Assembly: GCA_037379345.1 (NCBI GenBank)
Contig: CM074523.1
Location: 30,767,678-30,831,677, forward strand
Direction of reading: 5' to 3'
Source of the DNA: Perna viridis
Taxonomy: Eukaryota
DNA: 64,000 nt
A program made the position numbers and the translations under genes. Within the stretch, counting starts at the first letter, position 1, and every line of letters starts with the position of its first letter. This document shows, one piece after another, positions 4,895 to 61,700 of the stretch. Under the pieces are notes generated by a model that did no database searches, was not told the DNA's origin, and worked only from the letters and a program-made list of their open reading frames with translations.

Positions 4895-5601
4895 TGCATC
4901 TGTTCTTAAAAAATCAAAATAAATATCAAGTTTACCATAAATTTAAAGACTTGACACATTAAATGGGACTTAGACAATTGTCTGCACCATAAAACTTAAA
5001 AATAAAATCCTTTCCAAATATAATTGTAGTTTTACAAACCATATGGCTTATGTTGCCATATTCATAAGTCATTAAATTAAAACAATAAATTTTCTTTAAA
5101 AAAAATTGTTGATGACCTGTTGAATGTTGACAAAATTTAGAAAAATATTCTACAAAATGTCATCCCATCCCAAACCGATTATCTTGACATTTTTACACTC
5201 TACCCACATGTCTTATATAACTATTAAAGTAAAAAGTGCCATTAATGGAAATTAAACAATAAATTTGAACAGTAAATTGGTTAATGACTTAACAAGTGTA
5301 TAATGACCTAACAAATAATGGCTTCACCTTCCTTAACAAGACTCCATTCATTGAAAGATATTGAAAACACATGACATTGGTAAAGAAAAAAAAAGGATGG
5401 TAAGGGTGGTTGACACATACTCTGATAAAATTTCTAAAATATGAAATATTTTTAATGGGTTTATGACACTCTGTTGCTGCTTTAAGACTTGATAATGCTT
5501 TGAGAAGTATTGCAAAAGTTAGGAAGTTTATCAACCAATTTTATTGTCAAATATAAAACTTAACTCAGAACATCATACTCTATATCTTGTACATGTATCA
5601 A

Positions 5602-6085
5602 AAGATATTGGGCAGAGGTCAAAGATCAAGCTCCTTAGCAGCAATGTCAAGGTGGTTTTGTTGTATGGGGCAGAAACATGGCGAATAACAGTCAGAACAT
5701 TGGCGAAGATACAGGCATTTATTAACACCTGTCTAAGACCTATCCTCCTTAAACACTGGCCAGAAACTATCAGCAAATCAGACCTGTGGGAGATGACAAA
5801 TCAGCTACCTGCAGACCAAGAACTTATGCAGAGACGCTGGAGATGGATAGGTCAAACACTGCGGAAACCATCAACCAGTATAACAAGGCAAGCCCTGACC
5901 TGGAATCCCACAGGAAAACTAAAAAGGGGTAGATCCAGAAACACCTGGAAAAGGGACTTAGAGGCAGATATGAAAGGGATGGGGAACAACTGGACAGAAA
6001 TAGAAAGAGCAGCCCAGGACAGAGATGGCTGGAGAAGACTTGTTGGTGGACAATGCCCCCGTAGGTTTAACAGGCGAAAGTAAAG
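5602..6085 (+). mobile_element. 5'-truncated non-LTR retrotransposon (RTE-clade-like), ORF C-terminus with short-repeat tail
   Basis: [20 protein letters not shown]...[12 protein letters not shown]...[22 protein letters not shown]; AAGTA-type tail; direct repeats at 5554-5601 and 6086-6134. Confidence 0.88.
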
Positions 6086-25700: not shown

Positions 25701-28700
25701 TGTGAATTACTTGCTACTTCAATGTTGGCACTTGAAAGTAAAATTTAGAGGGGGCAGAGTATATCAGATCCTTAACTTCCAATCTATTATTTTTAAATTT
25801 TAAGCTCCCTTCGACAGTTTCAAACAGACTTGATAAAGAATACAGAAAAAACACCTACTCTGACAATGTAACGTGATTCCTTTGTAACATCACGCCCATC
25901 TCTGTACCATGTGATCTTTGGATTTGGTATTCCAGTCACAGTACAGGTAAAGGTCATACTCTTTCCAACTGGTATAGTCTTGTCTCTGAGTTTGGCAGTA
26001 AAATTAGGTTCAGTCTCAATTTTGAATCTTCTCACTGGTGCTTCAGTGGTATCAGCTATGGTAGGTCTGATTGGCTGGAATGTTGCTGGTAAGGGGAATG
26101 AGTCTGTCTCATCCTCCTTAGATGCAACTATAATATAGAAATGAGTAAATGAGTAATTTCCTTCTAATTTTGTCATTTGTGAAAGAGAAAAAATATTAAA
26201 TTAAAACTTTTCTACAAATACTTGAATTAAAGGACAGATAATTGAGCAGTGACTATCAGTGAAATCATTAACTGAAACTTGCAAAAAATGCACCATATTC
26301 AAGATCTGTGATCCTGAAGTTTTTTAAGACAAGGGAGTAACTAAAGTTTTCACCTTGAACTCTGAGGATGGCTTCAGTGGTGGTAGCTCCAACAACATTG
26401 ACAGCTCTACACATGTATCTTCCACTATCTTGGTGGTAAGTGTCATTAATGGTCAAAACATGGAGGTCACCTTCAGTAGTGACCTTGAAATGTCTGCCAG
26501 AGTACAAAGGTCTTCTTTCCTTGTACCATTCGATTTCTGGTTCAGGGAATCCTTTGACCTTGACCTCTAACCTGACAGAGCTGCCCTCTACAATTGTAGT
26601 GTCTTCCAGTCCTTTGATGAATTTTGGTGGTACTGCACCTTCTGGGATGGTTTCTAAACAAGATAAATGATCAATGTCTTAAGCTTGTGGAATATAATAT
26701 CTATTTGGGACAATAATTGTCAATATAAATGTAATAGCCCTATATTATTAAATCAAAACATTACAGTTTTCTTTTCTTAAAAATATGTTAGCAAAACATT
26801 CATTTAAGTGATTGCCTAAAAATGTTAAACCTGAATTTTCAGTGACATCTGCTCACTTACCTACAACCTTCACATCACATGAGCACATGGTACTGCCGTA
26901 GGGGTTGACAGCCTCACACTGCCATTGTCCGGCGTCTTGTGGTGCCACCTCATGGATAATGAGGCGGTATACACCCTTCATGTGCTCAAGGTCATACCTT
27001 TCTGATGATTTGATGACCTTACCATTGTGGTACCATGTGACTTCTGGTTCTGGGCGACATGTTACTAAAAATTGAAACATACTTTAACTAACAGTATCTA
27101 CAAGTATTTCATTTGAGAGTTTTGAAGTTTTTACTATCATAAATGGGAATGACAATGTTAGCAGACACCTTTTAAATTATTAGCCTATCCATTTATAACA
27201 ATTTCAATCTGAATCATACAATTTAGAATTCAAAATGTTGGTCAACTGTCACTCACTGTAAAGTGCTGTGTCTTAACTGTGACAGTCAGTTTCAGTGTTT
27301 CACCAACAGAAAGGAGGTAGACTCTGAAGAACTGTGTCTTACCTGTGACAGTCAGTTCCAGTGTTTCACCAACACGTTTGACTTGGTCAATCAGGGGTAA
27401 TGTGAATGCTGGAGGTACATTGCTATCCAACATAGCTGTGTCATAGTCATGTTTAGCATGCCTGAAAATAAGTGAACAAGTATAATACAAGATGTAAAAG
27501 GATTTAAAAAAGAGTTAAAACATAATTTTTCATCATTTATGAACAAGAGAAAGAAATTGAAAAACTGGTTACCAATTTCTGTGTTTTTTGGTCAAACAAT
27601 GAATTCACTTTACCCAGGAAATGTCAAATTTCAATTTTAGAAAGGAATGGTCTAATGAAATCCATAAATTCAGGAATTCACAAAAAAAAAAAAATAATAA
27701 CTTAACGATACATCAACCCTGTCAGTGTTAATCTGAGAAAATATTGTCTCTTATTGGACACTTATCCAACCGGTGCACCTGGTCCATGCTCCCAGTTTTC
27801 TGTTGAGTCTGATTGCTCATTTACTTATGTTTATTTGTTCATATCATTTTGATTATATCATGTTCCTTGTTGTGTGTGTCTGCTTTCCCTGTCTATCTTT
27901 ATCCTTAGATTATATTTTTTTTACTTCTGCTCGAATCTTGGTTCCCTTGATTATTCTATTGTTGTTGGTTCCCTTGATTACTCTTTTGTTGTTGGTTCCC
28001 TTGATTACTCTTTTGTTGTTGGTTCCCCTGATTACTCTTTTGTTGTTGGCTCCCTTGATTACTCTTTTGTGGTTGGTTCCCCTGATTACTCTTTTGTTGT
28101 TGGTTCCCTTGTTTACTCTTTTGTTGTTGGTGCCCTTGATTACTCTTTTGTTGTTAGTTTTCTTGATTACTCTTTTGTTGTTAGTTTCCTTGATTACTCT
28201 TTTGTTGTTAGTTTCCTTGATTACTCTTTTGTTGGTCATTAACTTATTCATATAATTTATGACAATTTGTCCTTAATGGAATATACACTTACTGTAATTT
28301 AGCCATAGCTTCATCAGCAAGTTTCTTTCTCCTTCTCCTGTGTTTCCTCTCTATAATAAGAAAAGCAAACATTATCAATAAGGATATGGAAATACAGTTC
28401 CCTCTTTTTTAATTTGTATCTATTTTTGTAAAACGGACAAACAGAAATGGACCTCACATATCTAACCACTTTTTTTAGCTATTCTAAGATCATTAATGGC
28501 GGCAAGGAAACAAAACATTTAAGCAAATAATAGAGATGGACTGATTGAATGACATCCCTCAGTTGCTTTTTTCAGCATTGGGACAATAATAGCAAAGACT
28601 TGACCATGTCCCTATATTGCTTCACTGTATGGAACAACAATAGTAAAGACTTACCATCAACAGTAAGCTTTCCAGTTGTTGACACATCACCAAATTCATT

Positions 28701-43700: not shown

Positions 43701-46700
43701 GGTGATAACTCTACCAAAACTGTCAGACCATAACAAAATTAAATGCTAATTTGTTACATGTCAGGGAAATAAAAAAAAAAAAAAAAAACATCAAGATAGT
43801 CAAAAAAAAGTACGACTGCATAGATTTACAATGCATAAACATAGTACCCAATGCACTTCATCTGCTTAGTACTAAAAAAAAACTCACTGTATGGACTCTT
43901 TGGAATGACTGATTCCTCTCCCTCAAGGGGTTCAGAAACTCCAGCCTTGTTCTCAGCCTTGACCCTAACATAGTACTCTGTCTTCTCCACCAATTTTGTC
44001 ATGGTGTATTTAGTTGTTGTTGATTTAATTCTGTCTAAGTAGCTCCAAGAGACTTTGGATTTCTCACGTTTTTCCAACACATAGTGTGTGATTGGTGAGC
44101 CACCATCATCTTCACTTGGTTGCCAAGCAACAGTGACTGATGACCTCTGAATGTCCTTGAACTCTAGTGGTCCAACTGGTGGTGAGGGTGGTTCTGTAAG
44201 GGAAAATGACTTGTTTTAGATTTTCCATGATTCAAAAATAAAAAAAGGTGCAGAAAATTATAAAAAGGGGAAAGGGATTTTGATCTAAAATATGACAGGT
44301 GACATAAAGTCTTTATACTAAACTAAGGCCATTCAAAGTATATTTCTTAGTTCTCAGGCTATGAAACCTATTGGTAAGGCCATTCAAAGTTATTTGCTTG
44401 GTTCTCAGGCAAAGAAACCGATTGGTAAGGTCATCCTTAGTTCATCTCTTGGTTCTCAGGCTAAAGAACTTATTGGTAAGGCCACTCAAAGTTAACCTCC
44501 TGGTTCTCAGGCTAAAGAACTTATTGGTAAGGCCACTCAAAGTTAATCTCCTGGTACTCAGGCTAAAGAACTTATTGGTAAGGCCACTCAAAGTTAACCT
44601 CCTGGTTCTCAGGCTAAAGAACTTATTGCTAAGGCCACCCAAAAATAATTTCTTCATTCTCAGGCTATTTTTTACTGTTTTCATTGTTTCTGAAAAGTGC
44701 TGAGGATGCTTTTGATATTATATATCACCAGATGGAGTAAAAAATAGTTCTTTTGCTGTTACATGTATTTTACTGAAATGGCAATATCAATGGGTTAATC
44801 AACACTTTAAAAGAAAAAGATGGATGGCCTGAGAAACAAAGGTTGGTTCTTGTTGGCCTTAGCATAATAAAGTATCATAATTTCTAATCTCCAGAAAAGT
44901 TAATGAAATGCCTCTTAAAACAGCAAAAAATTCACATTAAAAAAAAAACATACTAATTGGCTGCTTAGGTGAGTAAGTCCTGTCTGTTTCCGCCTTTTCA
45001 CCCTTTCCAACCTCATTTTCTGCACAGACACCAATATAATATTTCTCCTTGGGGTTCAACTTCGTTATGGCAAAGTAAGTCTTGAATGAGTCGACAGATG
45101 TAATCTCAAACCATTTATCATCACTAGATTCTGATTTGATGTAAATATAGTATTTCTTGACTCTGGCCCCGCCATCTTTTGTTGGTGGTCGCCATTCGAT
45201 GGTGATTTCTGTTTCCGTGATGTTGGTTACCTTAAGGTTGTTTGGTGGTCCCGGGGCACCTGTTAAAAGTACACCTTTATTATAGAAAACAAAACTTTTC
45301 AACTAAAAAAATAAAAATACAAAACTTTTCAACTAAAAACAATCATAAAATACTATATAGATAGATATATATAGATTTAGAAAGGTCTGAAAAATTTCCA
45401 ACAATGTTAGAACTGTCAAATTTGGAACTGAAACTTGTACCACTTTGACATCTATGGCAAAACCGTCTGCACAAAGTCTAGTGCTCAAGACCACTAGGCC
45501 AGCTAGGCTATATAAAAATATAGCTTTCGCTGGCAAGGTCATTCCTCCTTGTAGGATATATTTAGGGTTGTAACTTAGTACTTGATGTATGGTAGTACAG
45601 GACAGCTCATCTAGGTGTTGTTATGTAGGATAGAGGATCAAATTAATGATACATGTCACAGCACAGAGGACCTCTTTGAGTGAAATAGTTGGTTTTTTTT
45701 TTTTAACTTTGCCTGATTCTTAAACAGACTTGTACATAACCTGTCCCTACTTACTTAGTTTCTTCTTTGGAGTAACAGATTCAGCTCCCTCTAGTGGCTG
45801 ACTTTCTCCCTCCGAGTTGACAGCCTTAATTCTGAAGATGTACTCATTATCCACGACAAGTTTCTTAGCAATGAACTTTGTTGTCTGTCCATCAACAGAA
45901 CCTGCCTTACCCCACATGCTGCGGCGAGATTCACGGACCTCGATGTTGTAGTTTGTAATAGGAGTTCCTCCATCAGATTTGGATGGTTTCCATGACAACT
46001 CGACAGAGTTTTCTGTCAGGTCTGAGAATTTCAGTGGTCCTTCTGGTGCTGAGGGTTTATCTGTCAATATATCAAAAAAATGTTTACCAATTCTTTTCTC
46101 AATATAATTATGGGAGACAATTCTACATTGAAGTAAGGAACTGGGAGTAGAGGAAGTTACATATAACATATCAGTATTAATATGAACAGCATGTTAACAA
46201 AATTTCAATTTATCTGCCAAACAATAAAAACTCCATTAAAATTTAGCATAAGCCAAGCCCTAATTAAAAAAAATAACACATAAGAAAAAAAAAAGATTTT
46301 TTTTTATACTGGCAAATCATTTAATTACATAATAATAAAAAATATAAGTAGACCTTTGAGTTGTAAAATCACCAAAAAAAAAATAAAAAACACGAAAAAT
46401 TCATCCAGACAACATTATTTATTCTTTTGAAAAACCATATAACATTGATTTTTGACAACCTATATTTTGGAAAATTTAAAACATTGCAAAAAAAAAAAGC
46501 TAACCAAATGGACTCTTCATTAGTATTGGTTTTGGCATTTCAAGGTTATCGCCCTGGCCATGTTTGTTGACAGCTGATACACGGAAATAAAACTCTTTCC
46601 CGATGTCAAGGTTTTTGACTGTGAGTTTCAAGGTGCTGCCATCAGTTTTCTCAACTCTAGACCACATAGATTTCTGGACGTCACGTTTCTCAATGACATA

Positions 46701-58700: not shown

Positions 58701-61700
58701 TGACTGCAATAACCCTGAAGGTATACTGTTTGTCTTCTTCAAGTTCTTTGACATGGAAAGTATTGCTGAATTTGTCGACTTTTCCGAGAAGGATCCATTC
58801 TTCTCCATCAGTGGAGGACTCAATGATATACTCAATGACTGGTGATCCACCATCTTTGTCAGGTGACTTCCAAGAGAGGTCACATGATTTGGGTGATAGA
58901 TTTGACACTTTGAGTGGACCTTTAGGCGTGTTTGGAATAGCTTTAAGTATAGAAAAAAATTATTCGATACATTTTTATTCAAATTACACATATTTCAACA
59001 AAATTATAATTTAAAGAAAAAAAAACTGATAAATTCATTATTAGCATAACCAAGGGTTGGGAATGAAATTTTAAGAAGGGCCCATTTCAGGTTTATTTCA
59101 AAGATATTCAAAATTTAATAGCTATTTTTTAACGAAACATATAGATTTCTTTTATGTGAAGGAGCCATTTCCTTGCAAAAGGCCTATAGCCCCTTGCCTT
59201 CCCAACTCCTGAGCATAACATATTGTAAACATTACTTTGCAGTACTGAAATTCTTAATAAAGAAAAAAGAAAAATACACTTTTGTCCTACAGAAAATAAA
59301 GGACTTTCCCCCTATATAATGGTATTTAAAGTACAAGAATGAAAAACAAAAGTGATGTTCATTGCATTAAGATCAATATTATTCAAAGAAATTTTTCAAA
59401 GCAACTGAGATGGAAGGATCAAAAGGTAGACAAACAGTGGTTACCAAAACAAGAGGTGTAAAAATTACTCTCCCTAAATTTATAAATTTCTACTCACTGG
59501 CTTGTTTGACAGGCCTGACTGGTTCTTTGGACTCCAGAGCAGGACTGCTTCCCTCCTCATTCTCAGCCAGTACACGGAAGTTGTATGTGTTTCCTTCAAA
59601 CATATTATTCACTTTGAATGATGTGGTATCTGGCAAGATCTTGTCCAGTTTTGTCCAGTTCGGACGTTTGTCTTCACGTCTTTCTATGATGTACCCAGTT
59701 AGAGGCTTACCTCCATCTGATTTTGGTGGTTTCCATGACAACACTGCAGACTTGTCAGTTACATCTGAGATGTCAAGTGGTCCTTCTGGTGCACTTGGTT
59801 TGTCTAAAGAGAAATAAACCTGAAGTTGCACACACTGTATACCCTCATTTGTACAGGAAGTCAATACAGTAAAACCTCTCTACACCGAACCCCTTTCTGA
59901 CTGTAGAATTTGGTCAGTTTGGACAGGTGTACATTTTATCCAGATTCAAAATACATTTAAATTGACACAATGGAACTTCAAAACTTGCCTGGTTTAGGCA
60001 GGTTTTGGATTAATTCAGGGTTCGGTTTAGACAGGTTTTCGATTAATTAAGGGTTTGGTTTAGACAGGTTTTCAGTTAATTCAGGGTTTGTGTTTAGACA
60101 GGCTCTTGGTTAATTCAGGGTTCAGTTTAGACAGGTTCTCGGTTAATTCAGGGTTCAGTTTAGACAGGCCACACTGTATTTGACAGCAACAAAAACCAAA
60201 AGCTACATATCACTGGCAGCCCAAATAATTGTGATAAAAAATCAACAGATTGACAGAATGACACACTGAATGAATGAAAAACAGAAAAGACAAAGTTGAG
60301 GTAGTGTATAATAATTCATGAAACAAACTAAAACATTAACTTTGCTTTTTGAAGTTAATTTTACAGTTTGTCTGCTTGTTCTTTTTCTTTTTTTTTTTTT
60401 TTTAGATCTGACAATAAATTCACAGAATTCACTATTAGTTTTATTTAACTCACCAAATTCATCCTAATGTACATTAAAGTTACCAAATTCATTCTCAGGT
60501 ACATTAAACTCACCAAATTCTCTCTTAGGTACAATTAACTCACCAAATTCTCTCTAAGGTACATTAAACTCACCAAATTTGTTCTTAAGTACAATAAACT
60601 CACTAAATTCACTACTGAGTACAATTATCTCACCAAATTCACTACTGAGTACAATTATCTCACCAAATTTATTTTTAAGTACAATTAACTCACCAAATTC
60701 ACTCTTGGGTACAATAGCCTTGTCAGTATCCAGGAAGTCAGATCTTCCAATGGCATTCTCTGCACAGACACGGAAGTAGTAATCTTTTCCTTCTTTCAGT
60801 TTCTCAACTGTCAGTTTACATGTCTCTCCATCAGTTTTACCAGCAGGTACGTATTTGGCTCTGGCACTGTCTCTGCTTTCTACAATGTAGGCAGTGATAG
60901 GTGATCCGCCATCTTTGGGACTTGGTTTCCATGACAATGTGACTCTATCTTTGGAGATGCTTGTGGCCTCAAGTGGTGCCTCTGGTTTGGCTGGTTTTTC
61001 TAGGGAGACAAATTTAATGGTGTTGAAAATGCAACTTTAAAAGACAATTGCCCCTACTTGGAAAATGAATTCATGCTTTTTTAAAGATTTGTTAAAATTT
61101 TTGATCGCATATCCTAAGAATAAAATAGCATGCATTCATTTAAATTATCTTAGAAAAATGGTAACCATGAGAAGAAAGGGGGCTGAAATAAAATGTGTTG
61201 TCCCTTTTAAAATTCTGCTGAAAGGCCTTGTATTTCTTAACTACAACTTTTTAATGAGATCAACAGCTTGTCCAGCCAAACTTTTCATCAAAGAACTGAA
61301 CTGGACTTTTATCATTTTATTTCAAATCTAATTCTTTACACATGTATTTGACCTACCTTTTGGTTTGCTAGGTTTAACAGAAGATTCTGTCTCAATCTGT
61401 TTACCAACACCAGCTTCGTTCTCAGCAGCCACAGCAAAGAAATAGTCCACTCCCTCCTCTAGATTCTTCACCTTGTAGTGATTATCAAAGCTCTTGACCT
61501 TGGTGACCTCTGTCCAGTCATCTGGTTGACCTTTGGCCATTCTGATGTGATAGGCTGTGACCTTTGAGTTGCCATCTGATTTGGGTTTGCCCCATTCAAG
61601 TTCAGCAAAGTCTGGACCAGTTTTGTTGACCTTGATGTAGCTTGGTGCTCCTGGTGGTACTGGAAATGAATATTCATACATTACTTTCATGAATATTCAT

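Follow-up and report, generated by a model that had tools for sequence, protein, structure and literature searches.

Tandem repeats that duplicate an exon-intron boundary, and a splice site with it, are already known from human and amphioxus genes. In human F7, a 37-bp VNTR of intron 7 contains identical donors; splicing selects the intact one that lies furthest upstream and can turn to the copies once that donor has been destroyed (Borensztajn et al., 2006; PMC1557585). The same paper adds that stronger copies, with a consensus value of up to 91, do not compete, and that structure, NMD and intronic elements fail to explain the choice (PMC1557585). It also lists a reiterated donor behind the true one in CBS intron 13, interferon-inducible 6-16 intron 2, lamin B2 and PDGF intron 4. 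A 25-bp VNTR in ABCA7 intron 18 likewise reiterates a donor, and nearby copies are used there (PMC5954066). In amphioxus, the 'mirage' minisatellites of Adh3 and of the globins BflGb6 and BflGb9 are tandem boundary duplications on the donor or the acceptor side and recur in the genome. The BflGb6 units are 81-100% identical, and regular splicing is described as undisturbed (PMC3087553).

A minisatellite found in 64,000 nucleotides of Perna viridis DNA (the whole stretch analyzed, hereafter the window) is a further case of this architecture. As in F7, the first unit spans the boundary, identical donors follow downstream and only the most upstream one is used, here in the reads of run X21. The exonic share of the unit differs, at 4/37 nt in F7 and 22/30 here. 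In contrast to F7 as reported, the period here keeps the reading frame, copy similarity is 81% and three contig sets showed no change in copy number. With the amphioxus mirages the locus shares an invertebrate boundary duplication and undisturbed splicing, although the phylum differs and the length instability described for mirages (PMC3087553) was not seen in the three contig sets. The reports on CBS, 6-16 (PMC1557585) and ABCA7 (PMC5954066) describe splicing at one or two nearby copies, whereas none was seen used here; in lamin B2 and PDGF the extra donors are listed as unused, as they are here (PMC1557585). Boundary-spanning minisatellites of the F7 or mirage type combine a local origin, a terminal unit with the authentic junction and intronic copies that keep splice signals, and all three are found at this locus. 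A literature search by listings returned no paper on bivalve boundary arrays, which is weak evidence of absence. The best explanation, given a probability of about 0.87, is that a 30-bp exon-intron boundary was duplicated locally, that only its first donor is used in the RNA examined and that its further copies are probably neutral repeats within the intron.

The host gene and the structure of the array

The array begins at the end of an FN3 exon, which is followed by another FN3 exon and, further downstream, by a kinase exon (Pfam). A tblastn search of the window plus 200 kb upstream gave 125 exon-like blocks, every one of them on the minus strand; the gene also has Ig-like and Glu-rich repeat exons and spans more than 230 kb. 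Its best named protein match, in a search that covered proteins up to 2000 aa, is a twitchin-like protein of the brachiopod Lingula anatina (48% identity). Judged by its predicted domains, the host is a giant muscle-protein gene of the titin/twitchin family, an assignment at family level only; FN3, kinase, Ig-like and Glu-rich repeat exons are common to this family and the host gene. At about 30.91-30.97 Mb (G000:C13), the same gene holds very large Glu-rich tandem repeats whose periods (147, 357, 327 and 135 bp) are each divisible by three and which resemble PEVK-like spring segments. The features of the locus are as follows (a slash in a motif marks the exon-intron boundary).

60694..60999, minus strand: FN3 coding exon of 306 nt, its last 22 nt being the exonic part of unit 1 (Pfam fn3, E 1.7e-13; RNA joints 60999-61357 and 59803-60694)
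60688..60696, minus strand: donor 1, the authentic 5' splice site, TTG/GTGAGT, G at 60693 (junction reads; conserved FN3 intron position)
60416..60715, minus strand: boundary-spanning 30-bp minisatellite, nine copies and a decayed tenth at 60416-60445 (TRF and register; single genome locus)
60568..60666, minus strand: decoy donors 2-5 (60663, 60633, 60603, 60573), unused in reads (motif scoring; sense depth 0 in X21)
60418..60546, minus strand: decoy donors 6-10 (60543, 60513, 60483, 60453 and a weak 60423), stop-including, unused in reads (motif scoring; depth)
60554..60556, minus strand: in-frame TAG of unit 6 (reading frame)
60464..60466, minus strand: in-frame TAG of unit 9 (reading frame; absent from the initial annotation)
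59804..60693, minus strand: intron of 890 nt, GT-AG, phase 1, holding copies 2-10 (RNA joint skipping 890)
59498..59803, minus strand: following FN3 exon, acceptor 59803 (Pfam fn3, E 1.5e-15; RNA joint)

At 60445-60715, TRF calls a 30-bp unit in 9.0 copies with 81% matches, 0% indels and a score of 281, that is, head-to-tail units of minisatellite size; this bears out the nine copies of exon end plus donor described in the initial annotation. Read in register on the minus strand, each unit combines 22 exon nt with 8 intron nt. A GT is present in 10/10 units, including the decayed tenth (TCT/GTGAAT at 60423). The G of each donor GT lies at 60693 minus 30k (60693, 60663 ... 60453), so the 30-bp spacing first annotated stands, while the coordinates given with it were those of the T, one base below the G. 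Most donors had been said to read TTTG/GTGAG, and 7/9 do; donor 4 is TTTA/GTGAG and donor 8 is TTTG/GTAAC. From -3 to +6, the 9-mers of four decoys are identical to that of donor 1. The reading frame agrees with the earlier description of what each donor would produce: donors 2-5 would add 10, 20, 30 or 40 aa in frame, with no stop in these four extensions, and donors 6 onwards take in the TAG at 60554-60556. A further TAG, at 60464-60466, would be included by donors 9-10.

All seven minus-strand TTTGGTGAG of the 64-kb window fall inside the array, and the clustering of donors therefore goes beyond chance. The first 300 nt of this intron contain four sites that score within 1 bit of donor 1, and the corresponding stretch contains none in 34/34 paralogous introns. 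The array is not an assembly artefact, because assembled contigs cross most or all of it in X1 (60108-60672), X3 (60255-60640) and X18 (60413-60723). Other repeats occur nearby. The same intron holds a 33-bp repeat in 5.4 copies (window 59991-60168) that belongs to a dispersed family and to which many unrelated reads and contigs map; an array similar to it lies about 25 kb upstream. At 27938-28234 of the window, a 27-bp repeat in 11 copies (93% matches) has one open minus-strand frame just past an exon donor and appears intronic. On the plus strand, a 186-aa frame at 5523-6083 of the window resembles a non-LTR retrotransposon reverse transcriptase at its C-terminal end, and is a candidate remnant of one.

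The position of donor 1 is shared with the other FN3 exons of the gene. A phase-1 GT lies 20 (31 cases) or 19 (4 cases) residues past a conserved Asn in 35/35 scorable FN3 exon blocks (42 examined, 7 without a scorable motif), and donor 1 lies at 20. This homology of position marks donor 1 as the ancestral site. No array is present in a paralog with the same PKSEF end or in the closest paralogous exon (80% identical). A search of the genome with the array DNA gave one match, and a pattern search placed 4/4 matches in the array, although diverged copies could escape both. An ancestral donor 1 and an array confined to one locus suggest that the copies derive in place from the boundary. An origin as a dispersed repeat or mobile element was rejected, as neither genome search found a second locus. 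The boundary segment may have been multiplied by slippage or unequal crossover, and the copies would have drifted afterwards, gaining the two in-frame stops.

Donor use in RNA

The RNA evidence comes from 7 of the 24 listed runs, from 6 studies: the raw reads of X21 and six contig sets (X1, X3, X5, X13, X18, X19). X21, the only raw-read library, is stranded, had 19% of its reads sampled and has no tissue on record. Contig sets drop rare forms and their RNA origin is presumed; X18 shares its sample with the best-matching DNA runs. In X21, 107/107 listed junction reads (52 starts) lie at the joint 59803-60694, and thus use donor 1, with 114 at the upstream joint (60999-61357); no joint from any other donor was found among the 15 strongest of 21 joints. 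Sense depth in 30-bp bins set on the units is 0 in 16/16 bins from 60214 to 60693 versus 165.9 in 60694-60723, and 115 loose read ends at 60694 match the next exon. Since the use of any of donors 2-10 requires cover of 60664-60693, where depth is 0, the result holds beyond the joints listed. The 95% upper bound on other-donor use is 2.6% (from 115 reads) or 5.6% (from 52 starts).

All six contig runs hold the donor-1 junction, with no other junction among those listed, and regular splicing at the authentic donor prevails in the X21 reads and in 6/6 contig runs. Counting junction reads from each donor to 59803, the check proposed in the initial annotation, has thus returned donor 1 alone in one library (tissue unrecorded, 19% sampled) and six contig sets. 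The annotation had spoken of nine copies of a live donor; 'live' is accurate for donor 1 only, and the others are intact in sequence with no use seen.

Intronic contigs do occur, in X1 also in the upstream intron, and are consistent with unspliced RNA or DNA. X13 has two fully aligned intronic contigs confined to 60524-60664, at a depth of 4-4.7 versus 12 for the junction contig and without a junction; two of their ends coincide with an exact 35-bp internal repeat. Contigs of X13 stop at position -1 of donors 2 and 3. This was considered as a sign of donor use and rejected, as there is no junction; the ends are consistent with graph breaks at the exact 35-mer, although the two contigs count against the preferred reading.

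Choice of the first donor

What distinguishes donor 1 from its copies? A matrix of 34 paralogous donors, picked by homology position rather than by RNA, scores donors 1, 5, 6, 7 and 9 at 11.0 bits, donors 2 and 3 at 9.5, donor 4 at 8.4, donor 8 at 8.2 and donor 10 at 3.1. A score of 11.0 exceeds 30/34 paralogous donors, whose median is 7.2. Strength does not single out donor 1, because donors 5, 6, 7 and 9 score 11.0 bits too. NMD cannot hide or explain the silence of donors 2-5, because their forms are in frame. An exon size limit was rejected as the sole cause, since two-domain exons of about 600 nt occur in the host gene. Donors of equal strength, no masking, unused in-frame options and decoys nearer the acceptor together make the present array fit the F7 rule. 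By analogy with F7, the spliceosome would commit to the most upstream intact donor beside the exon, through exon-side cues or first-come loading of U1. Position, and not strength or RNA structure, would then silence the decoys, and these would be fall-backs only upon loss of donor 1, donor 2 first.

Some low, unregulated use of donor 2, perhaps also of donor 3, would be compatible with the preferred reading and would give rare, functionless +10 or +20 aa forms. This leakage is plausible, though less likely than not: the decoys, at 8.2-11.0 bits, are within the range of the gene's real donors, and nearby copies are reported as used in 6-16 and CBS (PMC1557585) and in ABCA7 (PMC5954066), yet X21 has a depth of 0 in the bin 60664-60693 and donors 2 and 3 score below donor 1 (9.5 vs 11.0 bits). 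The bound from X21 leaves room for such use below about 3-6%.

The pattern of change among the copies bears on whether the decoys are kept. Differences between units concentrate at -15 to -7, and -6 to +2 is near invariant. Selective conservation of the donor columns was nevertheless rejected: none of four tests was significant (p 0.26, 0.06, 0.50 and 0.09), in an array that was ascertained for its intact donors. Donor 3 carries a G>C change at +3 in X1 and X3 (two studies), and donor 2 reads AT for GT (60663) in one X18 contig at a depth of 2.06, possibly an error. Contig and genome lengths across the array are 567 nt on 565 in X1, 387 on 386 in X3 and 311 on 311 in X18, with no unit gained or lost in the parts crossed, in three samples.

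U1 has roles in speeding splicing and in shielding introns from premature cleavage. Decoys that are never cut might act in the same way, downstream U1 hastening donor-1 splicing or protecting the intron, and their cores would be kept intact as a result. The almost invariant columns -6 to +2, next to a variable mid-unit, are in keeping with such a role, but that conservation is non-significant and comes from an array noticed for intact donors. This role is improbable, as 34 paralogous introns manage without an array, copies in a 48-51-bp donor array of the same gene lost GT, and deletion or addition of F7 monomers is reported to leave splicing unchanged (PMC1557585).

The initial annotation had weighed a splice dial against a neutral minisatellite. 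In such a dial, some muscle type or stage would switch to donors 2-5 and insert 10-40 aa between the two FN3 domains, or would send the transcript to NMD through donors 6-9. The dial is very improbable. The period of 30 preserves the frame and the first four extensions lack a stop, but a period of 3n has a one-in-three chance, and linker length is fixed in 35/35 paralogous exons. In the 40-aa extension, 50% of the residues are hydrophobic and Pfam gives no match; a read-through query was covered to no more than 70% by any of 16 homologues, a weak test in proteins of 259-2000 aa only. The donor cores vary little by eye, yet donor-weakening variants segregate. Tissue coverage is incomplete; regulated alternative donor use would involve at least two donors measurably used in a condition-dependent way, and X21, one library, uses one. 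No X21 read and no listed contig in the six further runs uses donors 2-10, and NMD could conceal donors 6-9 only, as the in-frame forms escape it. The neutral minisatellite, by contrast, is supported by the X21 junctions, the depth of 0, the ancestral donor position and the non-significant conservation. Sequestration of the decoys by RNA structure, with donor 1 left free, is the most implausible reading: the array region is unusually stable against dinucleotide shuffles (z -2.64, 0/100 as stable) but not against a column-permuted, repeat-preserving null (MFE z -0.04, 131/300 as stable), and donors 5, 7, 8 and 9 are predicted to be more open than donor 1.

Boundary arrays in the gene and the genome

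Three further boundary arrays were found in the host gene, with boundaries set by homology. Two are on the donor side, a 48-51-bp array and a duplication of 60 bp, and one, 48 bp x 9, is on the acceptor side. The four arrays found in this gene thus have periods of 30, 48-51, 60 and 48. The acceptor array (G000:C13:31017803-31018235, minus strand, upstream of the window; 95% matches) spans a splice acceptor, and each upstream copy would bring its own TAG in frame, leaving only the last productive. The same exon also ends in the 60-bp x 2.3 donor duplication (31017550-31017690). The 48-51-bp array (G000:C13:30839367-30839608) starts at an FN3 exon end and donor, and its later copies lost GT. A similar 51-bp array in the window (44324-44667) is intronic and in the opposite orientation, and 30-bp arrays with a core similar to that of the 48-51-bp array lie further upstream. 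The 48-51-bp and similar-core arrays may belong to one dispersed minisatellite family, which would overlap that FN3 exon end or derive from it.

Genome-wide, a pattern of three GGTRAGT at 24-54-bp spacing has 1,687 matches. The first 100 of these amount to 28 arrays, which extrapolates to about 470-480 arrays. Spacing is divisible by three in 9/28 donor-motif arrays, so a period of 3n is not favoured over its one-in-three chance. Among exon-end arrays the figures are 0/5 on C1 and 4/4 in the host gene (4/9 together), and a frame-preserving bias is not claimed. Eight arrays were inspected, six with a Pfam scan: two lie at Pfam-confirmed exon ends, three show an acceptor plus open frame by eye, one is doubtful and two are without an exon. 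A donor array of 34 bp x 21 lies at the end of an exon of an NRF1 DNA-binding domain gene (L031:1470-2152, G000:C1 near 1.86 Mb), and one of 50 bp x 13 follows an ILEI-domain exon (L039, G000:C1 near 3.24 Mb); neither period is divisible by three. In a further case, an exon-like frame with no named domain precedes a 53-bp x 24 donor array (L042:1465-2737). The count of 1,687 against 1,021 for the pattern in reverse is not taken as genome-wide enrichment of donor-motif arrays, because the spread of control motifs, about fourfold, exceeds the effect (158 vs 667 for an unrelated 7-mer and its reverse). The acceptor-motif pattern (913 vs 959 reversed) gave mostly chance matches and is uninformative.

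The locus itself is ordinary. It provides one read-level invertebrate case of the F7 first-donor rule, and the rule holds here against four equally strong donors nearer the acceptor, with in-frame options open. Combined with annotation and RNA-seq, the approximately 470-480 arrays extrapolated for this genome would form a natural panel on the parts played by position, strength and spacing among identical donors, and on intron gain from repeats.
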